Shown here: positions 5,379 to 28,819 of the stretch, one piece after another
Layout of the letters: each line of letters starts with the position of its first letter
Numbering within the stretch: the stretch's first letter is position 1
Assembly: GCA_963777505.1 (NCBI GenBank)
Contig: CAVZQN010000004.1
Span: 1,575,814 to 1,639,813 of the forward strand
DNA length: 64,000 nucleotides
Direction of reading: 5' to 3'
Source of the DNA: an uncultured bacterium
Lineage (GTDB): Bacteria; Acidobacteriota; HRBIN11; JAKEFK01
Notes under the pieces: model-generated
Database searches by the model: none
What the model saw: the letters and a program-made list of their open reading frames with translations, nothing else
Told to the model about the DNA's origin: nothing
Translations under genes and position numbers: made by a program

Positions 5379-8300
5379 ATGCCTGATTACTTGAAAGAAG
5401 CCAGAAAAGCTGAAAAAGAAAAAATCTTTTCGAGAGCGGGCGAATTCTACCGGCTTGCTGGAGAAATCGATTCTGCTGTTGAAATGTACATGAAGGCAGA
5501 AGACTACATTCTCGCCGCTGGTCTCATGGAACAAAAAGGCAACTGGAGTGCTGCTGCAAATCTGTATGAACGCGGCAGACAATACCGCGATGCTGCCAAG
5601 ATTTACGAAAAAATTAAAGACTATCGTTCCGCCTTTTCAATGTATGAAAAGATCAACGATTATCCACGTGCTTCAGAAATGGCGGAAAAAGCGGAAGATT
5701 ATTTCAAAGCTGCTGTTATGGCTGAAGAAGCAAAAACATTGCAACGTGCAGCACAACTTTATATTCAAGCCAACCAATATCCACAAGCTGCAAGAATTCA
5801 TTACAAATTATTGCAACAACTTGTCGATCTCACTGAAAAAAGGTTTTTTCCAGATTATGAGGCGCAACTCGCGAAGCATGCGAATACAACGGCGATGCTT
5901 TACGAACGGATTAATGATCATGCAAAAGCAGCCTACTGTTATCAACTTGCAAGAAATCATAAGAAAGCTGCAGAGTCGTATCTTGCAGATCAGAAACCTG
6001 AGAAAGCTGCAGAGATCTATCACCAGCTAAAGAGCTACAACAAAGCATTTGAGATTTTGTCAGGACTCACTGACGTTTCAAACAAGCCTCTTTTCGCGGA
6101 TGTTTGTTACCAGTTAAAGAAATTTGATAAAGCTGCAACTTTATTTCAGCAGTGCGGAAATCTTGGCCGCGCTGCTGATGCCTGTGAACAGGCAAAGCTT
6201 TATAACATCGCAGCTAAGATTTATGAAGAACTAGGAAATTTCAAACGTGCTGCAGAAATGTGTTTGAAGGCAAATAATAAGATTCGAGCGGCTGAACTTT
6301 ATGAAAAGACAGGAAACTTCGGCAACTCCGCAATTTTGTATCAGCAGTCCGGACAAAATGAAAAGGCATTGGAAAGCTATCTTGCGATCGGGCGAAGAAT
6401 TCCTGCCGCCAAAATCGCTCTTCAAATAAAAGATGAAGATAGAGCTATCTTTTTGCTTCAGGCAATTAATCCAATGGAAGAAGAATATAGAGATGCTTGT
6501 GCACTTCTTGGTGTAATTTTCGCTGAAAGAGGAATGAGTTCAGCGGCTCAGCGCAAGTTCGAAGAAGCATTGGAACGCCCCACGCTTACGAAGACAAATT
6601 TGGACATCTATTTTGATCTTGCGATGCAGCAGGAAAAAATGGGGATGCGTGCAGAAGCGGCCGACTTGTATGAGCGGATTCTTTCTGTGGATTTTTCGCA
6701 CAAGGAAGCTTCACGCCGCCTTGAAGAGTTACGAAGATCGGCTGTTTACCATATTCCGGATACATTTTACGTGCCCCAGCCTTCAGAAAGTGTCGAAAAC
6801 ATTCAGACATCCGGACAACCTCGAATTGTGGCATCGCGTTATGAGTTGGTGGAAGAAATGATTCATGATGCTTCGGGGAAAGTATATAAAGCCAGCGATC
6901 AATTTTTTCAACGTCCTGTCATGATCCGGATTCTTCCGAAGCAGGATCAAAATCTTACACAGGTGATTCTAAAATGCACTCAACTTTCATCGGCACTCAA
7001 CCACAATAACATTCTCGCAATTTATGATGGTGGGAAAGATAAAGATGATTACTTTGTTTGTACCGAATATGTAGACGGTCAAACTCTGCGGCAGTATCTT
7101 TCGGATCATTCTTTGAATATTCAGGAAGTTGTTCAAATTGCGCAACAGATTATTTTGGCCCTTGCGTATGTTCATAAGAAGGGTCTAATTCATGGAAATC
7201 TGACGCCGGAAAATATTTATATTGCAGCCGACAAAAGTGTAAAGGTCACTAATTTTGGAAATCTTGCAGTATGGGAAAAACAAAATGCGGCTGTTGTTAA
7301 GCAATACTTAAGTCCGGAACAGCTTACGGATCAGACTTCTGATGAGCGAAGTGACGTCTATTCGTTCGGGATTATTTTGTATGAGCTTGCCTATGGCAAT
7401 CCTCCTTTTTCGGGCGTGGATGTAGAACAACAACATTTGAGTGCTCTTCCTGTATTTGAAGAAACTCCTTTACACACTGTCCCGGATTTTCTGATCCGAA
7501 TTATGAAGAAGAGCCTTGCAAAGGATCGAAACAGACGTTACGCAAATGCGGATGAAATCCAAAATGAGTTTGAAACACCGGGAATCACACCAGGCGTTGT
7601 TATCAATGGCAGATATGAAATTGTCCGTGAACTTGGCGAAGGCGGTATGGGAAATGTTTATCAAGCGCGGGACAGGGACCTGGATGAAATCGTTGCATTA
7701 AAAATGTTGAAGGGGGAGATCGGCGGTGATCCTGATATGCTTCAACGTTTCATTCGTGAAATCAAAGTCGCAAGAATGATTGCTCATCCAAATGTAGTAC
7801 GCGTTTTTGATACCGGGACATACGAAGCAAATCGATACATAACGATGGAATATATCGATGGCATCAGTTTTGACCGATGGATCGATCAATCTAGAGAGAT
7901 CGATCTGAAAACTCGACTCAACATTTTGTTGAAAATCATTCAAGGCGTTCAAGCCGCTCATGCCCGTGGCATCGTTCATCGTGATTTGAAGCCTCAAAAT
8001 ATTTTGATTGATTCCGACTTCATTCCTCACATTCTCGATTTTGGAATTTCACGAGTACGAACTCACAAAGATAGTTCAACGACAGCCAAAATTGTACTTG
8101 GTTCACCAAAATATACATCTCCGGAACAAATCAGCGGACAGGAGGCGGATTATCGCAGCGATATTTATTCGCTTGGAGTCCTTACTTTCTACATGTTAAC
8201 GTTTCAAGAACCTTTCAGCGGAGATGATGTCCAGAGTATTTTGATGAAACACCTAACTTTGGAGCCTGCTTCGCCCCGCCACTTGAATCCTGAAATTCCA

Positions 8301-8420
8301 CTCTGGCTCGAAGATATTGTTCTTCGCGCGTTACGAAAAGATCCCGCCAAACGTTTCGAAAACCTCGATGAAATGCTCGCCGACCTCAAATTCGGCATCG
8401 ACTTCAAGCAAAACTCATAA
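5379..8420 (+). CDS. Multidomain signalling protein: N-terminal array of TPR-like ~19-residue helical repeats, a degenerate (pseudo)kinase domain, and a canonical Ser/Thr protein kinase domain (1013 aa)
   Basis: C-terminal domain has LGEGGMGNVY, VALKML, HRDLKPQNIL, DFGISR, SPKYTSPE. The preceding domain has VMIRIL (K to R), HGNLTPENIY (HRD to HGN) and TNFG (DFG to NFG). N-terminal 350 aa are periodic Y-x-x-A-A-x-x-Y-E-K-type repeats. Confidence 0.8.
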   Translation: MPDYLKEARKAEKEKIFSRAGEFYRLAGEIDSAVEMYMKAEDYILAAGLMEQKGNWSAAANLYERGRQYRDAAKIYEKIKDYRSAFSMYEKINDYPRASEMAEKAEDYFKAAVMAEEAKTLQRAAQLYIQANQYPQAARIHYKLLQQLVDLTEKRFFPDYEAQLAKHANTTAMLYERINDHAKAAYCYQLARNHKKAAESYLADQKPEKAAEIYHQLKSYNKAFEILSGLTDVSNKPLFADVCYQLKKFDKAATLFQQCGNLGRAADACEQAKLYNIAAKIYEELGNFKRAAEMCLKANNKIRAAELYEKTGNFGNSAILYQQSGQNEKALESYLAIGRRIPAAKIALQIKDEDRAIFLLQAINPMEEEYRDACALLGVIFAERGMSSAAQRKFEEALERPTLTKTNLDIYFDLAMQQEKMGMRAEAADLYERILSVDFSHKEASRRLEELRRSAVYHIPDTFYVPQPSESVENIQTSGQPRIVASRYELVEEMIHDASGKVYKASDQFFQRPVMIRILPKQDQNLTQVILKCTQLSSALNHNNILAIYDGGKDKDDYFVCTEYVDGQTLRQYLSDHSLNIQEVVQIAQQIILALAYVHKKGLIHGNLTPENIYIAADKSVKVTNFGNLAVWEKQNAAVVKQYLSPEQLTDQTSDERSDVYSFGIILYELAYGNPPFSGVDVEQQHLSALPVFEETPLHTVPDFLIRIMKKSLAKDRNRRYANADEIQNEFETPGITPGVVINGRYEIVRELGEGGMGNVYQARDRDLDEIVALKMLKGEIGGDPDMLQRFIREIKVARMIAHPNVVRVFDTGTYEANRYITMEYIDGISFDRWIDQSREIDLKTRLNILLKIIQGVQAAHARGIVHRDLKPQNILIDSDFIPHILDFGISRVRTHKDSSTTAKIVLGSPKYTSPEQISGQEADYRSDIYSLGVLTFYMLTFQEPFSGDDVQSILMKHLTLEPASPRHLNPEIPLWLEDIVLRALRKDPAKRFENLDEMLADLKFGIDFKQNS

Positions 8421-8482
8421 GATTTTAGATTTCAGATCACTGATTTCAGATTGAAATTGAAAAATTGAAGATTGCTAGAGCG
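8421..8482. repeat. Terminal inverted repeat R1 of IVS-like cassette (GATTTCAGATT-rich, ~55 bp)
   Basis: gattttagatttcagatcactgatttcagattgaaattgaaaaattgaagattg; its reverse complement matches R2 (8876-8935) at about 85% identity. Confidence 0.75.
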
Positions 8483-8487
8483 TTTTT

Positions 8488-8841
8488 TTATTTCGATAGC
8501 TTCGATGTTTTTATGGAAGATACGAATATGGAAACAAGTTCATTTCCCTCAACAATTAATGATCTTAATAAAGACTCATTAAGGATTTTGCATTCGATAA
8601 TAATCTCCATCCAATAAAGAGATTCATCCGCTTCTTCCAAAACAATTCCCAGTTTTGAGATAAAATCCACTTTTGAACGTGCTCGACAAGCTGCACGATA
8701 ATTTGCTCCCACGGACGTTCCGGACCGAAAAAGCTGATCACCCACGCGTCGTGCTTCATATGAATTCGGCAGAGCTCTGCATAGTCTTAGGATGCGCTTC
8801 CCGTATTCTTTTGTTCGTCTCTTCATCTCTTGTTGATTCAT
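8488..8841 (-). CDS. Four-helix-bundle protein (TIGR02436; 23S rRNA intervening-sequence protein family)
   Basis: SGTSVGANYRAACRARSKVDFISKLGIVLEEADESLYWMEII matches the family signature; start moved to internal ATG (8839-8841) because the track ORF 5' end runs into repeat R2; flanked by inverted repeats R1/R2. Confidence 0.75.
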   Translation of the reverse strand: MNQQEMKRRTKEYGKRILRLCRALPNSYEARRVGDQLFRSGTSVGANYRAACRARSKVDFISKLGIVLEEADESLYWMEIIIECKILNESLLRSLIVEGNELVSIFVSSIKTSKLSK

Positions 8842-8875
8842 ATACCAACCTTCTCTCAATCTTTCAATCCTCAAT

Positions 8876-8935
8876 TTCAATCTGAAATCTAGAATCTGAA
8901 ATCTTAAATAATTGAACCGCAAAGTCACGGAGTTC
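8876..8935. repeat. Terminal inverted repeat R2 of IVS-like cassette
   Basis: caatctttcaatcctcaatttcaatctgaaatctagaatctgaaatcttaaataa is the reverse complement of R1. Confidence 0.75.
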
Positions 8936-8952
8936 TTTGCGTCTTTGCGGTT
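8915..8952. repeat. Hairpin formed by two inverted copies of the recurrent motif (AACCGCAAAG ... CTTTGCGGTT, 10-bp stem)
   Basis: aaccgcaaagtcacggagttctttgcgtctttgcggtt read directly; overlaps the 3' end of the DUF2851 CDS. Confidence 0.6.
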
Positions 8953-10388
8953 GGATTAAATTCGCAGCGGGAGCAGGAAGCATCGCGGTTATCGCAAAAG
9001 TCGTAAAAGAAGTGATGGAGCGCTTGTTGCCGGTGTGCGCTGTCAATCATGTTTCTTGCTTTCTCCGGGCTCCCAAACATCCGATGAACCATCAGACGTG
9101 TAATGCTGTTGTTAGGCAGTTTTGGATGACGTCTATAGATTGCATGGAGAGAATCTTCGAGCCCTCGTTGTGAAGTGAGCTCTGCATGCGCTAACAACAA
9201 TGGAAGCACGACATTTACGATCAGGATCCGCGCGCGATCCTTTCCGATCAATCTGCGAGGTGCGCTGAATTTGTGCTTATCGAATTGATAATGGTATGAC
9301 CAATACAAATGCGATGGACGTCCAAACAAGGCATTCCACGATTTGAGTATTTCGCGAATTCCGCGAGGCGATGGAAAAGGTTCGCCGATAGGGTGGAGTA
9401 ACAATGGAATGATTTGTCCAGAATGGTAATGAAAAAATGATGCAACAGCAGTGAGCCTGCGTGCAGGGAAGTTTGCCGGACGTGTACTTGAGGGATACCA
9501 ACAAAACCCGGTGAGTATTCGCGATTGAAAATGGGATTCGTGTTTATGCCAGTATTGAAAAAGCTCGTTTAGATACCACGACGTTTCAGGATCTTCCGGA
9601 GTTAAACGGATCTGTGATAAGTCTTCGATCAATCCCGCAGTACCAAGTAATATCGCAGCCATTGAATCGATACCGCGCCGACCCGCAAAATTGTAATGCA
9701 TCAATTCATCAATCGGAATTCTTTGGGCAAGCTCACGGAATGCATATCGAGATTGCTTATATCCCATGCCTTCCATGATGCCTTCATAAAAAGCTTGCTG
9801 AAATGTTTGCGATCGAAGTGCCGTCAGATATCGTTCCTTTTTTCGGCGCATTCGAAGATCGCCTGCTGAATCCAATATTCGTGTGATGGATAGTTCATCA
9901 TGCTCTTCCAGAAATCGTCTGCAAAGATGTACTTTGCTTCCTGCATGAAATGGAAATTCATGAATCGGCAATCGTGTCTGCAGCAGCCTTAACTCTTCCA
10001 TCAATGAATCTTTTAATTCCAGTTCAGGAACCGACTCTCCATTCTGTTTGATACATTCCGCGCCTGTGCTGTACAAAACAACGTGAAGAACAACGCTGTT
10101 GTAACGTGGATCCAGATGGTGCCGGTGTTGATACCATTCACCGCTGCTTAAATGAATTTCAACATCACCACACATCCGTTTTCCATCAACAAACAATTCT
10201 GCATTTCGAAAGTCCGGGCCTGCTTCAAGATTCCACCAACCTGGCGATGATATCGATAACGCTGTGCCGTTCAGGCGCAATTGTTTCCGGAAGAGTTGTT
10301 CAGACCAGATGCAATGGATTAAACGTTCAAGGACGCGTTCGCGTCCACCATAGGGGTTTTGCGATTCGCAGACGAGATAAGGTTCCAT
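8925..10388 (-). CDS. DUF2851-family protein (487 aa)
   Basis: N-terminal ERLIHCIWSEQLF...PGWWNLEAGPDF...GDVEIHLSSGEWYQHRHHLDPRYNSVVLHVVL pattern recalled for DUF2851; assignment from memory only. Confidence 0.5.
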   Translation of the reverse strand: MEPYLVCESQNPYGGRERVLERLIHCIWSEQLFRKQLRLNGTALSISSPGWWNLEAGPDFRNAELFVDGKRMCGDVEIHLSSGEWYQHRHHLDPRYNSVVLHVVLYSTGAECIKQNGESVPELELKDSLMEELRLLQTRLPIHEFPFHAGSKVHLCRRFLEEHDELSITRILDSAGDLRMRRKKERYLTALRSQTFQQAFYEGIMEGMGYKQSRYAFRELAQRIPIDELMHYNFAGRRGIDSMAAILLGTAGLIEDLSQIRLTPEDPETSWYLNELFQYWHKHESHFQSRILTGFCWYPSSTRPANFPARRLTAVASFFHYHSGQIIPLLLHPIGEPFPSPRGIREILKSWNALFGRPSHLYWSYHYQFDKHKFSAPRRLIGKDRARILIVNVVLPLLLAHAELTSQRGLEDSLHAIYRRHPKLPNNSITRLMVHRMFGSPEKARNMIDSAHRQQALHHFFYDFCDNRDASCSRCEFNPTAKTQRTP

Positions 10389-10469
10389 CGTTTGCCTCCT
10401 GTTTTGGCAAACGGTGGAGGATGGTAGGAAGTTACCCGCACTAGGATTTTACCACAAAGACACGGCCTA

Positions 10470-10660
10470 CGGCCGCAATTTCAGATTTCAGATCTTAGAT
10501 TTCAGATTGAAATTGATGATTTTTGGATTTAAGTACAGGTTAATTCTACTTTATGTGAGCAGACCGAATTAAGGCTTAAAAAGAATCTAATAGCTTCTAT
10601 CAATCTTCAATCAAAAATTTCAATCTGAAATCTAAGATCTGAAATCTAAAATCTATTGGA
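10470..10660. mobile_element. MITE-like empty element: inverted repeats R3 (10470-10530) and R4 (10598-10660) of the same GATTTCAGATT family flanking a 76-bp non-coding core
   Basis: 33-bp core caatttcaatctgaaatctaagatctgaaatct is identical between rc(R3) and R4; no ORF between them; sits in the DUF2851 / radical-SAM intergenic region. Confidence 0.6.
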
Positions 10661-12023
10661 CTTGGAGTTTGGCGTAGGAGGGTGAACTGCCGCAGCTTTC
10701 AAACCATTCGAGGCCTTCACACACCATATCAAATTTCAGCCAGTACTGGCCGGGTGAGTTTACGGCGGGAACTTGAAAATCAAGACGCAATGCTTGTCCT
10801 GAAGGAAGAGCCTTTGGAAGCAAAGCACGTCCGAAGTTGCGGTTAATCATGCTACGGTTGCGATCTAACAATGAAATTCCGAGAGTGATATGTCTTCGAT
10901 TCGTGCGTGAAGTGTTTTTCCAGAGTGCCCCGCCGGCATTAAGAATTTCTGCGCTTGTAGTAAACGATTGGCCGGCTTTGACTTTCAATGCTGCAATCTC
11001 CGGACGTATTTCGGCTTTTAATGCTTTTTCGTGGATTGCATTTCCTAAAGCGCTCCAGATTTCATGCTGAATCTTTTCATATTCAGGGCGTCCCGGAACA
11101 AACCTTTCGGAAGCTGAATTTTCAGGATGATCTGTAATTTCCCAGCATAAACGATCGATTCCAAGTTCACCTGCAAGTTTTCGTGCAAGATCCATCTCTT
11201 CATCAGTGTCGTTCCAACGAAACAAAATGTAACGCCAGTTGATGAACGGCGTATCGGAGTTCAGTTCATGTTTGATTTCCACAAAGCGCTTCAGGATGCG
11301 CATCAATTTATCGAAATCGCCTCCACGCCTGTAACGCACATATGATTCTTGCATGGCCCCATCGATCGAGAAAGTAATTTCATCAATCCCTGATTTCGTA
11401 AGAGCGCGCAGTTTTTCATCCGTGTTTAGCAGCAATCCATTAGTGCTTGTAAAAAGATAAATCTGAGGATATCGAGATTTTGCATATTCGATCATTTCGA
11501 TCGCGCGTGGATGGATGAAACTTTCACCGTAATTAAAGAAGTCAATGCGCTGAAGTCCCGGTCCAAGCTCATCAATTACTTTTGTGAAAGTGTCATAATT
11601 CAAGAGCCGGATCGATCGCGTAAAATGGATTCCATTTTCATGATTGCAACAAGCTTCAAAACAGGAAAGATTGCAGGAGACACAAGGCTCTACGAATAAA
11701 CGCTGAGGCATATAGGCAAGCGAGGTGCCATCAGGTAATTTCACTGCAGGATCGGATGCAACTCCCATCAAGTTGCAATGGGTGCAAAGTACGGGATTAT
11801 TTTTATGCAGACCCTCACGCAATCCACGAAACACCGGACCATTCCAAATTTCTTTAATGCTCAAGATCGATGCATTGCCAGCCGGACGCTTTTTGAATGG
11901 ATCGGCACAACCACAAACGATCGTTCCATCTGACATTAATGTGACCGTCTCCCATGGCCATGTACAAAAGAAACGCTGGCCTGGTTGAAGATCGATTTGA
12001 GAGGGTTCTTCGGTTCCTATCAT
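10653..12023 (-). CDS. Radical-SAM-like protein with N-terminal SPASM-like Cys-rich domain and non-canonical Cys cluster (456 aa)
   Basis: N-terminus FFCTWPWETVTLMSDGTIVCGC...GNASILSIKEIWNGP...CTHCN resembles a SPASM/twitch domain. The core has CVSCNLSCFEACC (not CxxxCxxC) and FNYGESFIHP (GGEP-like). The C-terminal ~100 aa are unassigned. 4-nt overlap with the upstream deacetylase gene. Confidence 0.5.
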   Translation of the reverse strand: MIGTEEPSQIDLQPGQRFFCTWPWETVTLMSDGTIVCGCADPFKKRPAGNASILSIKEIWNGPVFRGLREGLHKNNPVLCTHCNLMGVASDPAVKLPDGTSLAYMPQRLFVEPCVSCNLSCFEACCNHENGIHFTRSIRLLNYDTFTKVIDELGPGLQRIDFFNYGESFIHPRAIEMIEYAKSRYPQIYLFTSTNGLLLNTDEKLRALTKSGIDEITFSIDGAMQESYVRYRRGGDFDKLMRILKRFVEIKHELNSDTPFINWRYILFRWNDTDEEMDLARKLAGELGIDRLCWEITDHPENSASERFVPGRPEYEKIQHEIWSALGNAIHEKALKAEIRPEIAALKVKAGQSFTTSAEILNAGGALWKNTSRTNRRHITLGISLLDRNRSMINRNFGRALLPKALPSGQALRLDFQVPAVNSPGQYWLKFDMVCEGLEWFESCGSSPSYAKLQVQ

Positions 12024-26930: not shown

Positions 26931-27478
26931 CTCGAACTGAACGGATTCAATGGCAGATTTTTGTTTTACTTGTTGTTGCGATCGCTGCGTCTATTTATTA
27001 CTTCTCAATGCCTTCTACCGAAGATCCTATAAAAACGAACCTAAAAAAACCTTCCGCAAAGCCTGGGACTTCGTCGCCCGATAACTTACCACAAGTTTCT
27101 ACGCTTCAAGGAAAACTTCCAGAATTTAAGAATGTACAGAGGAACGTTTTTGAATTTGCAGGAGAACCCTCTGAATCAGATGATGTAACGAGTTCACAAC
27201 CCGTTTTAACCGAGCCGCAAACCATGCCGCTCCTGGTTCCGGTTGGACCTGATGTAACATATTTGGCTTTTTACAAAGAAAAAGAGGGATCGAATCGGAA
27301 ATTAGCTGCAATTAGTAATGGTGGGCAAATCTATGTTGGCGGTGTAGGTGAAGTCCTTGCTGGAAAGTACAGGGTGATTCAGGTTGAAGATGAATTCATC
27401 GAAGTCGAATATTTGCCTGAGAAACGAGTGATCCGCTTGGAACTCGGCCGCCATGATGGAACTCCGCCGCTGGAGTGA
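26906..27478 (+). CDS. Hypothetical membrane-anchored protein (Pro/Ser-rich linker plus C-terminal beta domain)
   Basis: N-terminal TM helix IFVLLVVAIAASIYYF; overlaps neighbours on both sides. Confidence 0.4.
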   Translation: MGQDLGRMTRTERIQWQIFVLLVVAIAASIYYFSMPSTEDPIKTNLKKPSAKPGTSSPDNLPQVSTLQGKLPEFKNVQRNVFEFAGEPSESDDVTSSQPVLTEPQTMPLLVPVGPDVTYLAFYKEKEGSNRKLAAISNGGQIYVGGVGEVLAGKYRVIQVEDEFIEVEYLPEKRVIRLELGRHDGTPPLE

Positions 27479-28014
27479 TCCACCTATCGAGAAATCTTTA
27501 TTTTTACTGGTTTAAAATAGAACTGATGAAAGAAGATCGTGATGCCATTGCTCTCGCAATTGAACTATTTCATAAAGCGTATGTGCATCATATGAGTGGT
27601 TATCTTGATGAGGCAATTGAACTTTATAGGGAATCAATTGCAATGTATCCAACGGCTGAAGCATACACATTCCTCGGATGGGCATATAGTTTTCAAGGAA
27701 GATTGGATGAAGCGATTGAGGAATGTAAAAGAGCGATCGAAGTCGATCCTGATTTCGGCAATCCATACAACGATATCGGGGCATATTTAATTGAAAAGGA
27801 ATTGTTCAATGAAGCGATTCCATGGTTGAAACAAGCCACGGAAGCGAAACGATACGAATCCTATCATTTTCCACATTACAATCTTGGGCGTGTATATATT
27901 GCGCAAGGTATGATGAAGCGCGCAATCGAAGAATTTCAAAAAGCGTTAAAAATTGCGCCAAATTACACGCTCGCACGTGATGCATTAGAAGAAACGAGCC
28001 GGCAGATCAATTAA
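27475..28014 (+). CDS. TPR-repeat protein
   Basis: Repeated A-x-x-Y/W-x-G-x-A-Y helical pairs (AEAYTFLGWAYSFQGRLDEAIE... ); GTG start overlaps the upstream stop. Confidence 0.6.
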   Translation: MIHLSRNLYFYWFKIELMKEDRDAIALAIELFHKAYVHHMSGYLDEAIELYRESIAMYPTAEAYTFLGWAYSFQGRLDEAIEECKRAIEVDPDFGNPYNDIGAYLIEKELFNEAIPWLKQATEAKRYESYHFPHYNLGRVYIAQGMMKRAIEEFQKALKIAPNYTLARDALEETSRQIN

Positions 28015-28095
28015 AGATCAAAAATGAAAGATCAAAGATCAAAAATAAAGATAGAGCTTCATTTTTGATATTTTATTTTTCATTTTTTATTTTAA
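28015..28095. repeat. AT-rich imperfect palindrome with tandem AAAGATCAAA units; probable bidirectional terminator/hairpin
   Basis: aaagatcaaaaatgaaagatcaaagatcaaaaataaagat ... ttcatttttgatattttatttttcatttttt read directly. Confidence 0.4.
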
Positions 28096-28099
28096 TAAC

Positions 28100-28819
28100 A
28101 TGGATCTAAAAAACAAAAGTGTTCTGATTACTGGAGCAGCCCGAAGACTCGGCCGTGAGACTGCAGTTCATCTGGCGCGAGCAGGGGCTCGAATTACAGT
28201 TCAATATAACGAATCGGCAGAAGACGCGAAATCACTTCAAAAAGAAATTGGCTGCGAAATTGTTCAGGCAAATTTTACAGCAATGCCCGCCGAAGAACTT
28301 TGTAAGCGTCTGGAATCGGCAGCCGGACATGTTGATATTCTGATTAACAACGCGTCCACGTTTACACATGTGCGATGGCCTGAAATTTCGGAAGAAATAT
28401 GGGATCGGGAACTTGCAGTAAATCTTAAAATACCATTCTTCTTAACGCGTTACTTTGGAAGCCGAATGAAGACGAAAGGGATCGGCAAAATTTTAAACAT
28501 AGCCGATATTGCTGCAGAGCATCCATATTTAACATATTTTGCATACAGCATAGCGAAGTCCGGAATCATCACAATGACGCGTGGATTTGCCCGGGCGCTG
28601 GCTCCATCAGTTCAAGTAAATGCTATCGCTCCCGGCACGGTATTGCCGCCTGACAATATGGATCCCGGGCAATATCGTAAACTAATAGAGAAAATTCCTG
28701 CGCAACGTCCGGCGAGTGTGGAAGAGTTTTTACGAACTGTTGATTTCTTGCTGTCGGATGTAGATTATATTACCGGCCAAACGATCACTTTAGACGGTGG
28801 CCGTTCATTAAACTGGTGA
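28100..28819 (+). CDS. SDR-family short-chain dehydrogenase/reductase
   Basis: VLITGAARRLG NAD(P)-binding motif and the catalytic YSIAKSG. Confidence 0.8.
   Translation: MDLKNKSVLITGAARRLGRETAVHLARAGARITVQYNESAEDAKSLQKEIGCEIVQANFTAMPAEELCKRLESAAGHVDILINNASTFTHVRWPEISEEIWDRELAVNLKIPFFLTRYFGSRMKTKGIGKILNIADIAAEHPYLTYFAYSIAKSGIITMTRGFARALAPSVQVNAIAPGTVLPPDNMDPGQYRKLIEKIPAQRPASVEEFLRTVDFLLSDVDYITGQTITLDGGRSLNW

Follow-up and report, generated by a model that had tools for sequence, protein, structure and literature searches.

The window, that is, the whole stretch of DNA analysed (64,000 nt), carries on its minus strand a radical-SAM/SPASM gene (10653–12023) followed by a DUF2851 gene (8925–10388). 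A hairpin of 175 nt (10478–10652) that holds no gene lies between the two. A sibling element (8421–8935), the loop of which is filled by a gene for a four-helix-bundle protein, lies between the DUF2851 gene and a kinase/TPR gene (5379–8420). The features are as follows.

8421–8491, plus strand: first arm of the sibling element, heptamers GATTTTA GATTTCA GATCACT GATTTCA GATTGAA and further units, adjoining the TAA with which the kinase/TPR gene (5379–8420) ends
8488–8841, minus strand: four-helix-bundle gene, 117 aa, filling the loop of the sibling hairpin; TIGR02436, E = 3e-25; PF05635 (23S_rRNA_IVP), E = 5e-16
8840–8909, plus strand: second arm of the sibling element, 70 nt, 76% complementary to 8422–8491; the inner part bears the ribosome-binding site GAGAGAAGG of the four-helix-bundle gene
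10461–10477, minus strand: small G+C-rich terminator-like hairpin, TGCGGCCGTAGGCCGTG then TCTTTGTGGT, a feature distinct from the heptamer hairpin
10478–10535, plus strand: left arm of the gene-less hairpin, degenerate heptamers ATTTCAG ATTTCAG ATCTTAG ATTTCAG ATTGAAA TTGATGA and further units; well paired over 10478–10521, perfect core 10483–10514
10536–10595, no strand assigned: loop of the gene-less hairpin, ~60 nt, non-coding
10596–10652, plus strand: right arm of the gene-less hairpin, reverse complement of the left arm; well paired over 10609–10652, perfect core 10616–10647
10653–10655, minus strand: TAG stop codon of the radical-SAM/SPASM gene (10653–12023); its G opens the outermost right-arm heptamer

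Inverted arms of the gene-less hairpin were located by a repeat search of the 64-kb window at 10478–10521 and 10609–10652 (44 nt each, 93% complementary, 87 nt apart); the alignment can be extended, more weakly, to ~72 aligned nt at 79%, leaving a loop of ~55–60 nt. The longest perfect inverted match is 32 bp (10483–10514 / 10616–10647), with 101 nt between the perfect cores. A perfect inverted core of 33 bp around 76 bp had been given in the initial annotation; the inverted repeat is real, and both figures are replaced by those given here. Stop codons were found throughout all six frames, so that the hairpin has no coding capacity and the DNA between the arms is non-coding, as first described. 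Both arms are degenerate, mirrored tandem arrays of 7-nt units of GATTTCA type (TRF, period 7); on the minus strand the right arm reads GATTTTA GATTTCA GATCTTA GATTTCA GATTGAA, and the left arm reads likewise on the plus strand. When periods 4–12 were passed through a strict autocorrelation filter, period 7 alone yielded arrays in the window. The 20-mer AGATTTCAGATTGAAATTGA was matched four times in the 64-kb window at up to three mismatches (0.03 expected); all four matches are arms, those of the 10478–10652 hairpin and those of the 8421–8935 element.

The region folds as a single long hairpin (RNA: −77.6 kcal/mol, z = −11.1; DNA: −42.5 kcal/mol, z = −8.6), and none of 200 shuffles folded as well; the RNA folding proposed as a check on the first description thus returned one long hairpin. 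An Rfam scan of 8300–10800 gave no fitting RNA family and no rRNA match; plant microRNA-precursor models appeared far below threshold (37 bits against a gathering score of 230), which is the generic signature of a long hairpin. A promoter scan gave three weak sites against 4.5 expected, hence no evidence of a promoter in the arms. The position just past a stop codon on the transcribed strand is one that an ordinary intrinsic terminator might occupy, and a palindrome may also arise by chance. The heptamer stem, however, is A+T-rich, at least 44 bp long and without a U-tract or T-run, and the terminator-like hairpin at this junction is the separate one at 10461–10477; with fold z-scores of −11 (RNA) and −8.6 (DNA) and a motif count of 4 against 0.03, both explanations are left with a negligible probability and are effectively refuted.

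The arms of the gene-less hairpin are 81–85% identical to those of the 8421–8935 element over 52–66 nt, and the assignment of the two to one inverted-repeat family is upheld. In the RNA fold of the sibling the arms pair around the entire ORF, the ribosome-binding site being placed at the inner base of the stem. The only PDB relative of the 117-aa protein is 2RLD, an entry with five chains; no match was found in PHROGs or PADLOC, which leaves a phage or defence-system reading unsupported. The initial annotation had described 10478–10652 as a cargo-less derivative of the sibling. Cargo-less it is, but the derivation was not supported: no remnant of the four-helix-bundle gene was found above shuffles in the 10536–10595 loop (nucleotide alignment against three cassettes; six-frame translation), and neither element has arms recently copied from the other. 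An inverted repeat of 16 nt (88%; TAATTGAACCGCAAAG / CTTTGCGGTTGGATTA) at 8909–8958 spans the DUF2851 stop codon and adjoins the outer end of the sibling arm.

On the transcribed minus strand the heptamer hairpin is followed by the small GC hairpin (10461–10477), a spacer of ~70 nt and the DUF2851 gene. The outermost heptamer takes its first base, G, from the radical-SAM TAG codon, so that the stop codon marks the start of the element; the junction there reads TAG^AT. Five relatives show the same succession of polysaccharide deacetylase, radical-SAM and DUF2851 genes (DUF2851 identity to that of the window: L112, 83%; L115, 66%; L113, 64%; L116, 64%; L114, 63%). Their spacers between the radical-SAM and DUF2851 genes are 68, 100, 60, 120 and 108 nt, that of the window being 264 nt; a heptamer array is absent from this junction in all five, and a small GC hairpin analogous to 10461–10477 is present in the relatives. 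The radical-SAM C-terminus and the DUF2851 leader (…ccaccgtttgcc…ggaggcaaacgATG) align across the gap between the window and the relatives, and the junction of L115 has the same …GTCCAATAGAT… as the window; what the window has in excess therefore consists of the hairpin and a variable segment with the GC hairpin. With synteny kept and the junctions of the relatives short and array-free, the 10478–10652 hairpin is an insertion, and these alignments place the event in the source lineage, exactly at the radical-SAM stop codon. For the sibling, an empty site is only suggestive: in L115 the DUF2851 and kinase/TPR genes are convergent and overlapping, without an intervening cassette, and end in C-termini other than those of the window. 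A Logan contig (ERR12035939) carrying the radical-SAM gene of the window stops 35 nt past the stop codon, inside the right arm (R4); this break fits an arm repeated in that genome, or a hairpin that breaks assembly.

The two closest homologues of the four-helix-bundle protein with usable DNA (P0009 in L028 and P0005 in L029; 74% and 76% identical by BLASTP) lie in unrelated gene contexts, yet the same inverted arms (…AGATTTCAGAT…GATTTCAGATTGAAATTGA…) were found at the ends of the gene. A metagenome scan with the protein gave 80 loci with homologues 50–68% identical, nearly all with inverted arms of 20–80 nt made of heptamers. GA at 7-nt spacing was found in 78 metagenomic loci as follows: at least four units upstream (top strand), 68/78; at least four units downstream (bottom strand), 60/78; at least three GA-phased units on both sides, that is, inverted arrays, 69/78. 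Arms in these loci typically have 4–6 units (mode 4–5), and the controls (periods 5, 6, 8 and 9; control segments of the same 78 loci) gave ~2 units. The unit pooled from 757 heptamers is G-A-T(64%)-T(71%)-G/T-C(45%)-A/G; its sequence varies by subfamily (GATTGCG, GATTGCC, GATTTCA, GAGGTCA, GAATGCA and others), and the arm class tracks the protein tree, being the same in 28 of 34 nearest neighbours. All 80 metagenomic homologues are flanked by ORFs, hence none of them lies in rRNA. The only gene between the arms in 82 gene-bearing relatives is the four-helix-bundle gene of ~117 aa (TIGR02436/PF05635). The cassette is co-directional with the upstream gene in 53 of 65 cases, near the usual co-orientation of bacterial neighbours; this bias is suggestive of read-through expression. 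In L113, a relative of the source genome, (AAAAATC)n … (GATTTTT)n was observed at 7272–7457 between divergent DUF8201 and SAM_HAT genes; the polarity of these arrays is opposite to that of all four-helix-bundle cassettes, the GA arrays lying on the 3′ side.

The exact arm pattern was found at 27 loci of reference genomes in five phyla (Acidobacteriota, 18; Verrucomicrobiota, 3; Bacteroidota, 3; Planctomycetota, 2; Cyanobacteria, 1). Cultivable carriers include Flavobacterium sp. LAR06 and Aerosakkonema sp. BLCC-F183. A clear second arm is present at ~19 of the 27, with loops of 4–333 nt, and none of these ~19 hairpins contains an ORF of at least 90 aa. Host GC at the 27 loci is 31–68%, arm GC 21–32%. 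The arms abut ORF boundaries, start as well as stop codons, with gaps of −6 to +9 nt. Gene-less copies occur in tandem, convergent and also divergent gene pairs, and no single transcript-level role fits all of them for this reason. Several cross-phylum copies keep the GATT heptamer motif with arms that pair moderately (76–92%), so that recognition of the motif fits as well as selection for pairing. Pairing of a left arm with its own right arm was on average only slightly higher (23.1) than with foreign right arms (20.7), the own partner ranking about mid-table; the left arms had all been preselected by one exact pattern, which makes this comparison a weak one. The family is shown to occur with and without the gene in many genomes, and the gene-less 10478–10652 copy belongs to it.

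One related Acidobacteriota MAG has four gene-less copies with ~65-nt arms homologous to those of the window and with loops of 0 to ~110 nt. No similarity was found between the 10536–10595 loop and the loops of gene-less copies L008, L013 and L020. The loops of L013 and L020 are homologous to each other (54/82 identical, z = 5.5) at unrelated loci, from which it follows that gene-less elements are copied as such; to this extent only is the earlier claim that the repeats propagate independently of the gene borne out, and the four-helix-bundle protein may still be needed for the copying.

Unrelated palindromes are nested in the loops of two heptamer hairpins (L004, 7133–7513, a very long G+C-rich hairpin; L008, 3552–3771), an arrangement suggestive of insertion hot spots in the loops or of hairpin growth from the tip. 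In L022 (417–494; Acidobacteriota genome, 68% GC) a gene-less hairpin apparently lies in the spacer of two tRNA-like sequences, as judged by eye. L030 and L031, IMG/VR contigs classed as viral, have the exact arm motif and a weak second arm ~300 nt off.

The hairpin had been called MITE-like in the initial annotation, and in outward form this is apt: the repeats are terminal and inverted, the element is small (175 nt) and without coding capacity, it is an insertion relative to the orthologues, and its family occupies unrelated loci. As to copies per genome, two lie within the 64 kb of the window and a related MAG has four or more; related genomes served for the genome-wide search proposed as a check. 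A classical MITE, a DNA transposon reduced by deletion and moved in trans by a transposase that recognises the terminal inverted repeats, is nevertheless a poor prospect. The target-site duplication sought as a check was not found: no direct repeat of 2–10 nt flanks any of six family members inspected (the two in the window; L008, L011, L013 and L020). No transposase lies in or beside any of the 82 gene-bearing copies, and none is among the 25 Pfam families listed of the 131 matched in the window. The arms, moreover, are variable-number tandem repeats whose sequence differs by subfamily with the 7-nt period kept, unlike the conserved ends to which a transposase binds.

Changes in the arrays and arms could be followed between related loci. 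L014 and L025, from near-identical genomes, differ by exactly one heptamer; L007 and L019, from two Verrucomicrobia species, have an array at the orthologous site, three units apart. One orthologous locus, with a fabF-like gene on one side and a gene that ends in …DAMKKE on the other, is occupied by seven members of a subfamily with GAGGT arms (L056, L083, L066, L071, L089, L098 and L103). L056 and L083 have the cassette in the orientation opposite to that in L066, L071, L089, L098 and L103; the 35-nt arm module (five heptamers) is present in 1–5 copies, tandem or inverted; and at some of these loci complete hairpins stand on both sides of the gene, as [a a′] gene [a a′] (L071). This locus is a natural invertible, BIME-like mosaic. 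In L103 the same variant heptamer, GAGTGCA replacing GATTGCA, is found in both arms. From the differences of one and three heptamers, the inversions, the module numbers and the L103 variant it follows that arrays slip, arms recombine and paired arms change together. At the level of aligned loci, heptamer number is thus shown to drift by slippage, and arm modules to recombine, with inversion of the cassette and variation of copy number.

The variation of modules and orientation at one orthologous locus means that recombination between arms is frequent and that direct-oriented modules able to delete the gene exist. The 10478–10652 hairpin might accordingly be a solo hairpin left by deletion of a cassette through such modules, as a solo LTR is, with no movement of the repeat without its gene. 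Cassettes with complete hairpins on both sides (L071), arm modules in 1–5 tandem or inverted copies and both orientations at one orthologous locus would supply the substrate for this. We nevertheless regard it as rather improbable: the loop holds no gene remnant, although a precise arm-to-arm crossover would leave none; the exact arm matches in reference genomes are gene-less (27; an ORF of at least 90 aa is absent from the ~19 with a clear second arm); and the loop homology of L013 and L020 at unrelated loci in one genome points to copying of the gene-less form itself.

A resident regulatory array was considered as well, grown locally by slippage, in which the GATT units at 7-nt spacing would be protein-binding sites controlling the flanking genes. 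The conservation of an orthologous array in L007 and L019 is more in keeping with a functional resident than with a selfish insertion, the unit number changing between these two Verrucomicrobia species; the heptamer motif is conserved despite poor pairing of the arms; the arms abut start and stop codons (gaps −6 to +9 nt); and for intergenic direct repeats of heptamers elsewhere a role in translation has been proposed (PMC4679880). Mirrored arms that match perfectly over 32 bp are, however, more than slippage alone can account for, the five relatives have an empty junction, and ~65-nt arms recur whole, down to the irregular succession of their heptamer variants, at unrelated loci as well as in different genomes. 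Such an origin, with a four-helix-bundle pentamer or a single-strand binder of cold-shock type as the protein bound, is accordingly given little credence.

The reading preferred here, in which our confidence is somewhat better than even, is that 10478–10652 is an ORF-less, IVS-like hairpin in an mRNA spacer and a member of the S23p heptamer-arm family. The arms of this family are mirrored arrays of ~4–8 heptamers, GA-T-T-(G/T)-C-(A/G), and its full-length members have a TIGR02436/PF05635 'S23p' gene in the loop; these hairpins would be of the same kind as the S23p-encoding intervening sequences (IVS) of 23S rRNA, sited in the spacers of protein-coding genes. Transcription of the radical-SAM gene would continue through the hairpin on the minus strand, and in the transcript a double-stranded RNA stem of at least 44 bp, nearly perfectly paired, is predicted. 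If the Coxiella and Leptospira IVS are a guide, RNase III would cut this stem, and cleavage may then uncouple the upstream and downstream messages or reset their stability. No insertion mechanism or mobilising enzyme was found; new copies are likeliest to arise by copying of whole gene-less hairpins and by recombination between similar arms.

The closest known relative is the S23p-type IVS of 23S rRNA, present in Coxiella burnetii, Leptospira, Brucella and Xanthomonas (PMC4990558). That of Coxiella, described as 'selfish', is 428 nt long; its terminal stem has 28 bp and its loop contains the S23p ORF; 2–3 tandem GACAGAT heptamers plus GACAGAA lie upstream of the ORF, their number varying among strains, and RNase III cuts at the first repeat (PMC4990558). 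The S23p of X. campestris is a homopentameric toroid; ORF-less versions of the IVS exist in other bacteria, and these elements are regarded as selfish, their means of movement not being known (PMC4990558). Shared with the hairpins described here are a long stem formed by terminal complementary sequences (at least 44 bp here, 28 bp in Coxiella) and GA-initial tandem heptamers in the stem with variation of copy number (7-nt indels here, GACAGAT in Coxiella). The PF05635/S23p four-helix-bundle ORF in the loop is shared with the full-length family members; it is absent from the 10478–10652 copy and present in the sibling at 8421–8909. The rRNA elements differ in sitting in helix 25 or 45 of 23S rRNA, whereas the 10478–10652 hairpin lies between protein-coding genes, and cleavage by RNase III has been shown for them and is inferred for this hairpin.

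REPIN and REP-BIME elements likewise are extragenic inverted hairpin doublets, with clusters in which repeat modules vary in number and alternate in orientation; a single gene type is bracketed by the repeats, and gene-less copies far outnumber gene copies. In the REPIN/RAYT system, however, the gene bracketed is a Y1 (RAYT) transposase, and here a 117-aa four-helix-bundle protein matching only PF05635/TIGR02436; the REP unit is a lineage-specific imperfect palindrome of 20–40 nt, and here a tandem heptamer array with the same arm sequence crossing phyla. Neisseria Correia elements are small non-coding MITEs with terminal inverted repeats that are co-transcribed with their neighbours, the long RNA stems being RNase III substrates; they have a TA target duplication and conserved 26-bp ends, in contrast to the heptamer hairpins, which lack a duplication and end in variable-number heptamer arrays. 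Intergenic heptamer direct repeats, TAACTGA, for which a translational role has been proposed, are found in Beggiatoaceae, Cyanobacteria and Bacteroidetes (PMC4679880). The cyanobacterial STRR and these TAACTGA repeats share with the present arrays the intergenic 7-nt tandem units, often ending by start codons, the variable copy number and the cross-phylum occurrence; they differ in being direct arrays of other unit sequences with no associated gene reported, whereas here mirrored pairs are tied to one protein family.

Avd, the accessory protein of the same fold family as the gene product of the sibling element, is a pentamer that binds nucleic acid. A resemblance of the PF05635 fold to Avd of diversity-generating retroelements (DGR) is on record (PMC10053308). 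No reverse transcriptase was found in the genes immediately flanking both elements or among the 25 Pfam families listed of the 131 matched in the window, and no DGR template or variable repeats were seen, the neighbours being kinase/TPR, DUF2851 and radical-SAM genes. A full-text literature search, of incomplete coverage, gave no paper that describes heptamer arms as general to the S23p family, or gene-less copies outside rRNA; the one link between an S23p protein and heptamers that it returned is the Coxiella IVS paper. The hairpin family with heptamer arms is thus apparently undescribed so far.

Retention of GATT despite imperfect pairing, the ~five units per arm and an A+T-rich arm across hosts of differing GC make the heptamers possible protein-binding units, for which the pentameric protein is the obvious candidate. 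We put forward as a speculation, to which we attach a low probability, that the toroidal pentamer of the four-helix-bundle protein specifically recognises the heptamer arrays (typically ~five units in an arm module) and that each subunit engages one 7-nt unit, the array being wound round the ring as in the TRAP–RNA complex; gene-bearing hairpins and the far commoner gene-less ones would then be one cross-phylum system with the protein acting in trans. If so, a protein acting in trans on dozens of intergenic hairpins would govern whether hairpins form, how RNase III processes them or how neighbouring genes are translated, or else would promote copying of the hairpins, and the role of the S23p proteins of rRNA intervening sequences would be explained as well.

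To our knowledge, no function or means of spread has been established in ~30 years for S23p/TIGR02436 proteins and the IVS that fragment 23S rRNA. The gene family is now seen to be almost always bracketed by mirrored 7-nt arrays, outside rRNA too; the arrays are present in larger numbers without the gene, and one arm sequence is common to five phyla at 31–68% GC. A curiosity of rRNA genes thereby becomes a general, testable class of elements. It offers a candidate protein–nucleic acid pair (a pentameric ring and 4–6 heptamers), operon spacers in which RNase III substrates are predicted, and, for the study of element movement, inversions and sites found filled or empty in nature. It also bears on annotation and assembly: short-read contigs are broken at heptamer hairpins, which also lie hard against start and stop codons.

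Arrays of other heptamers were observed too. Within the same 8-kb locus of L003 (oriented, ~1290–1400) there is a second hairpin built from another unit (TAGAGGC/TAGAGGT, then the complement), which means that several types of heptamer hairpin coexist in one genome; additional heptamer arrays are present in L010 and L016. In the window itself a third heptamer hairpin, again of another unit ((AAAGATC/AAAAATG)n, then an imperfect complement), lies at 28012–28095 (RNA: −22.5 kcal/mol, z = −4.3); it extends from the TAA stop codon of ORF 27475–28014 (plus strand) to 5 nt before the ATG of ORF 28100–28819 (plus strand).
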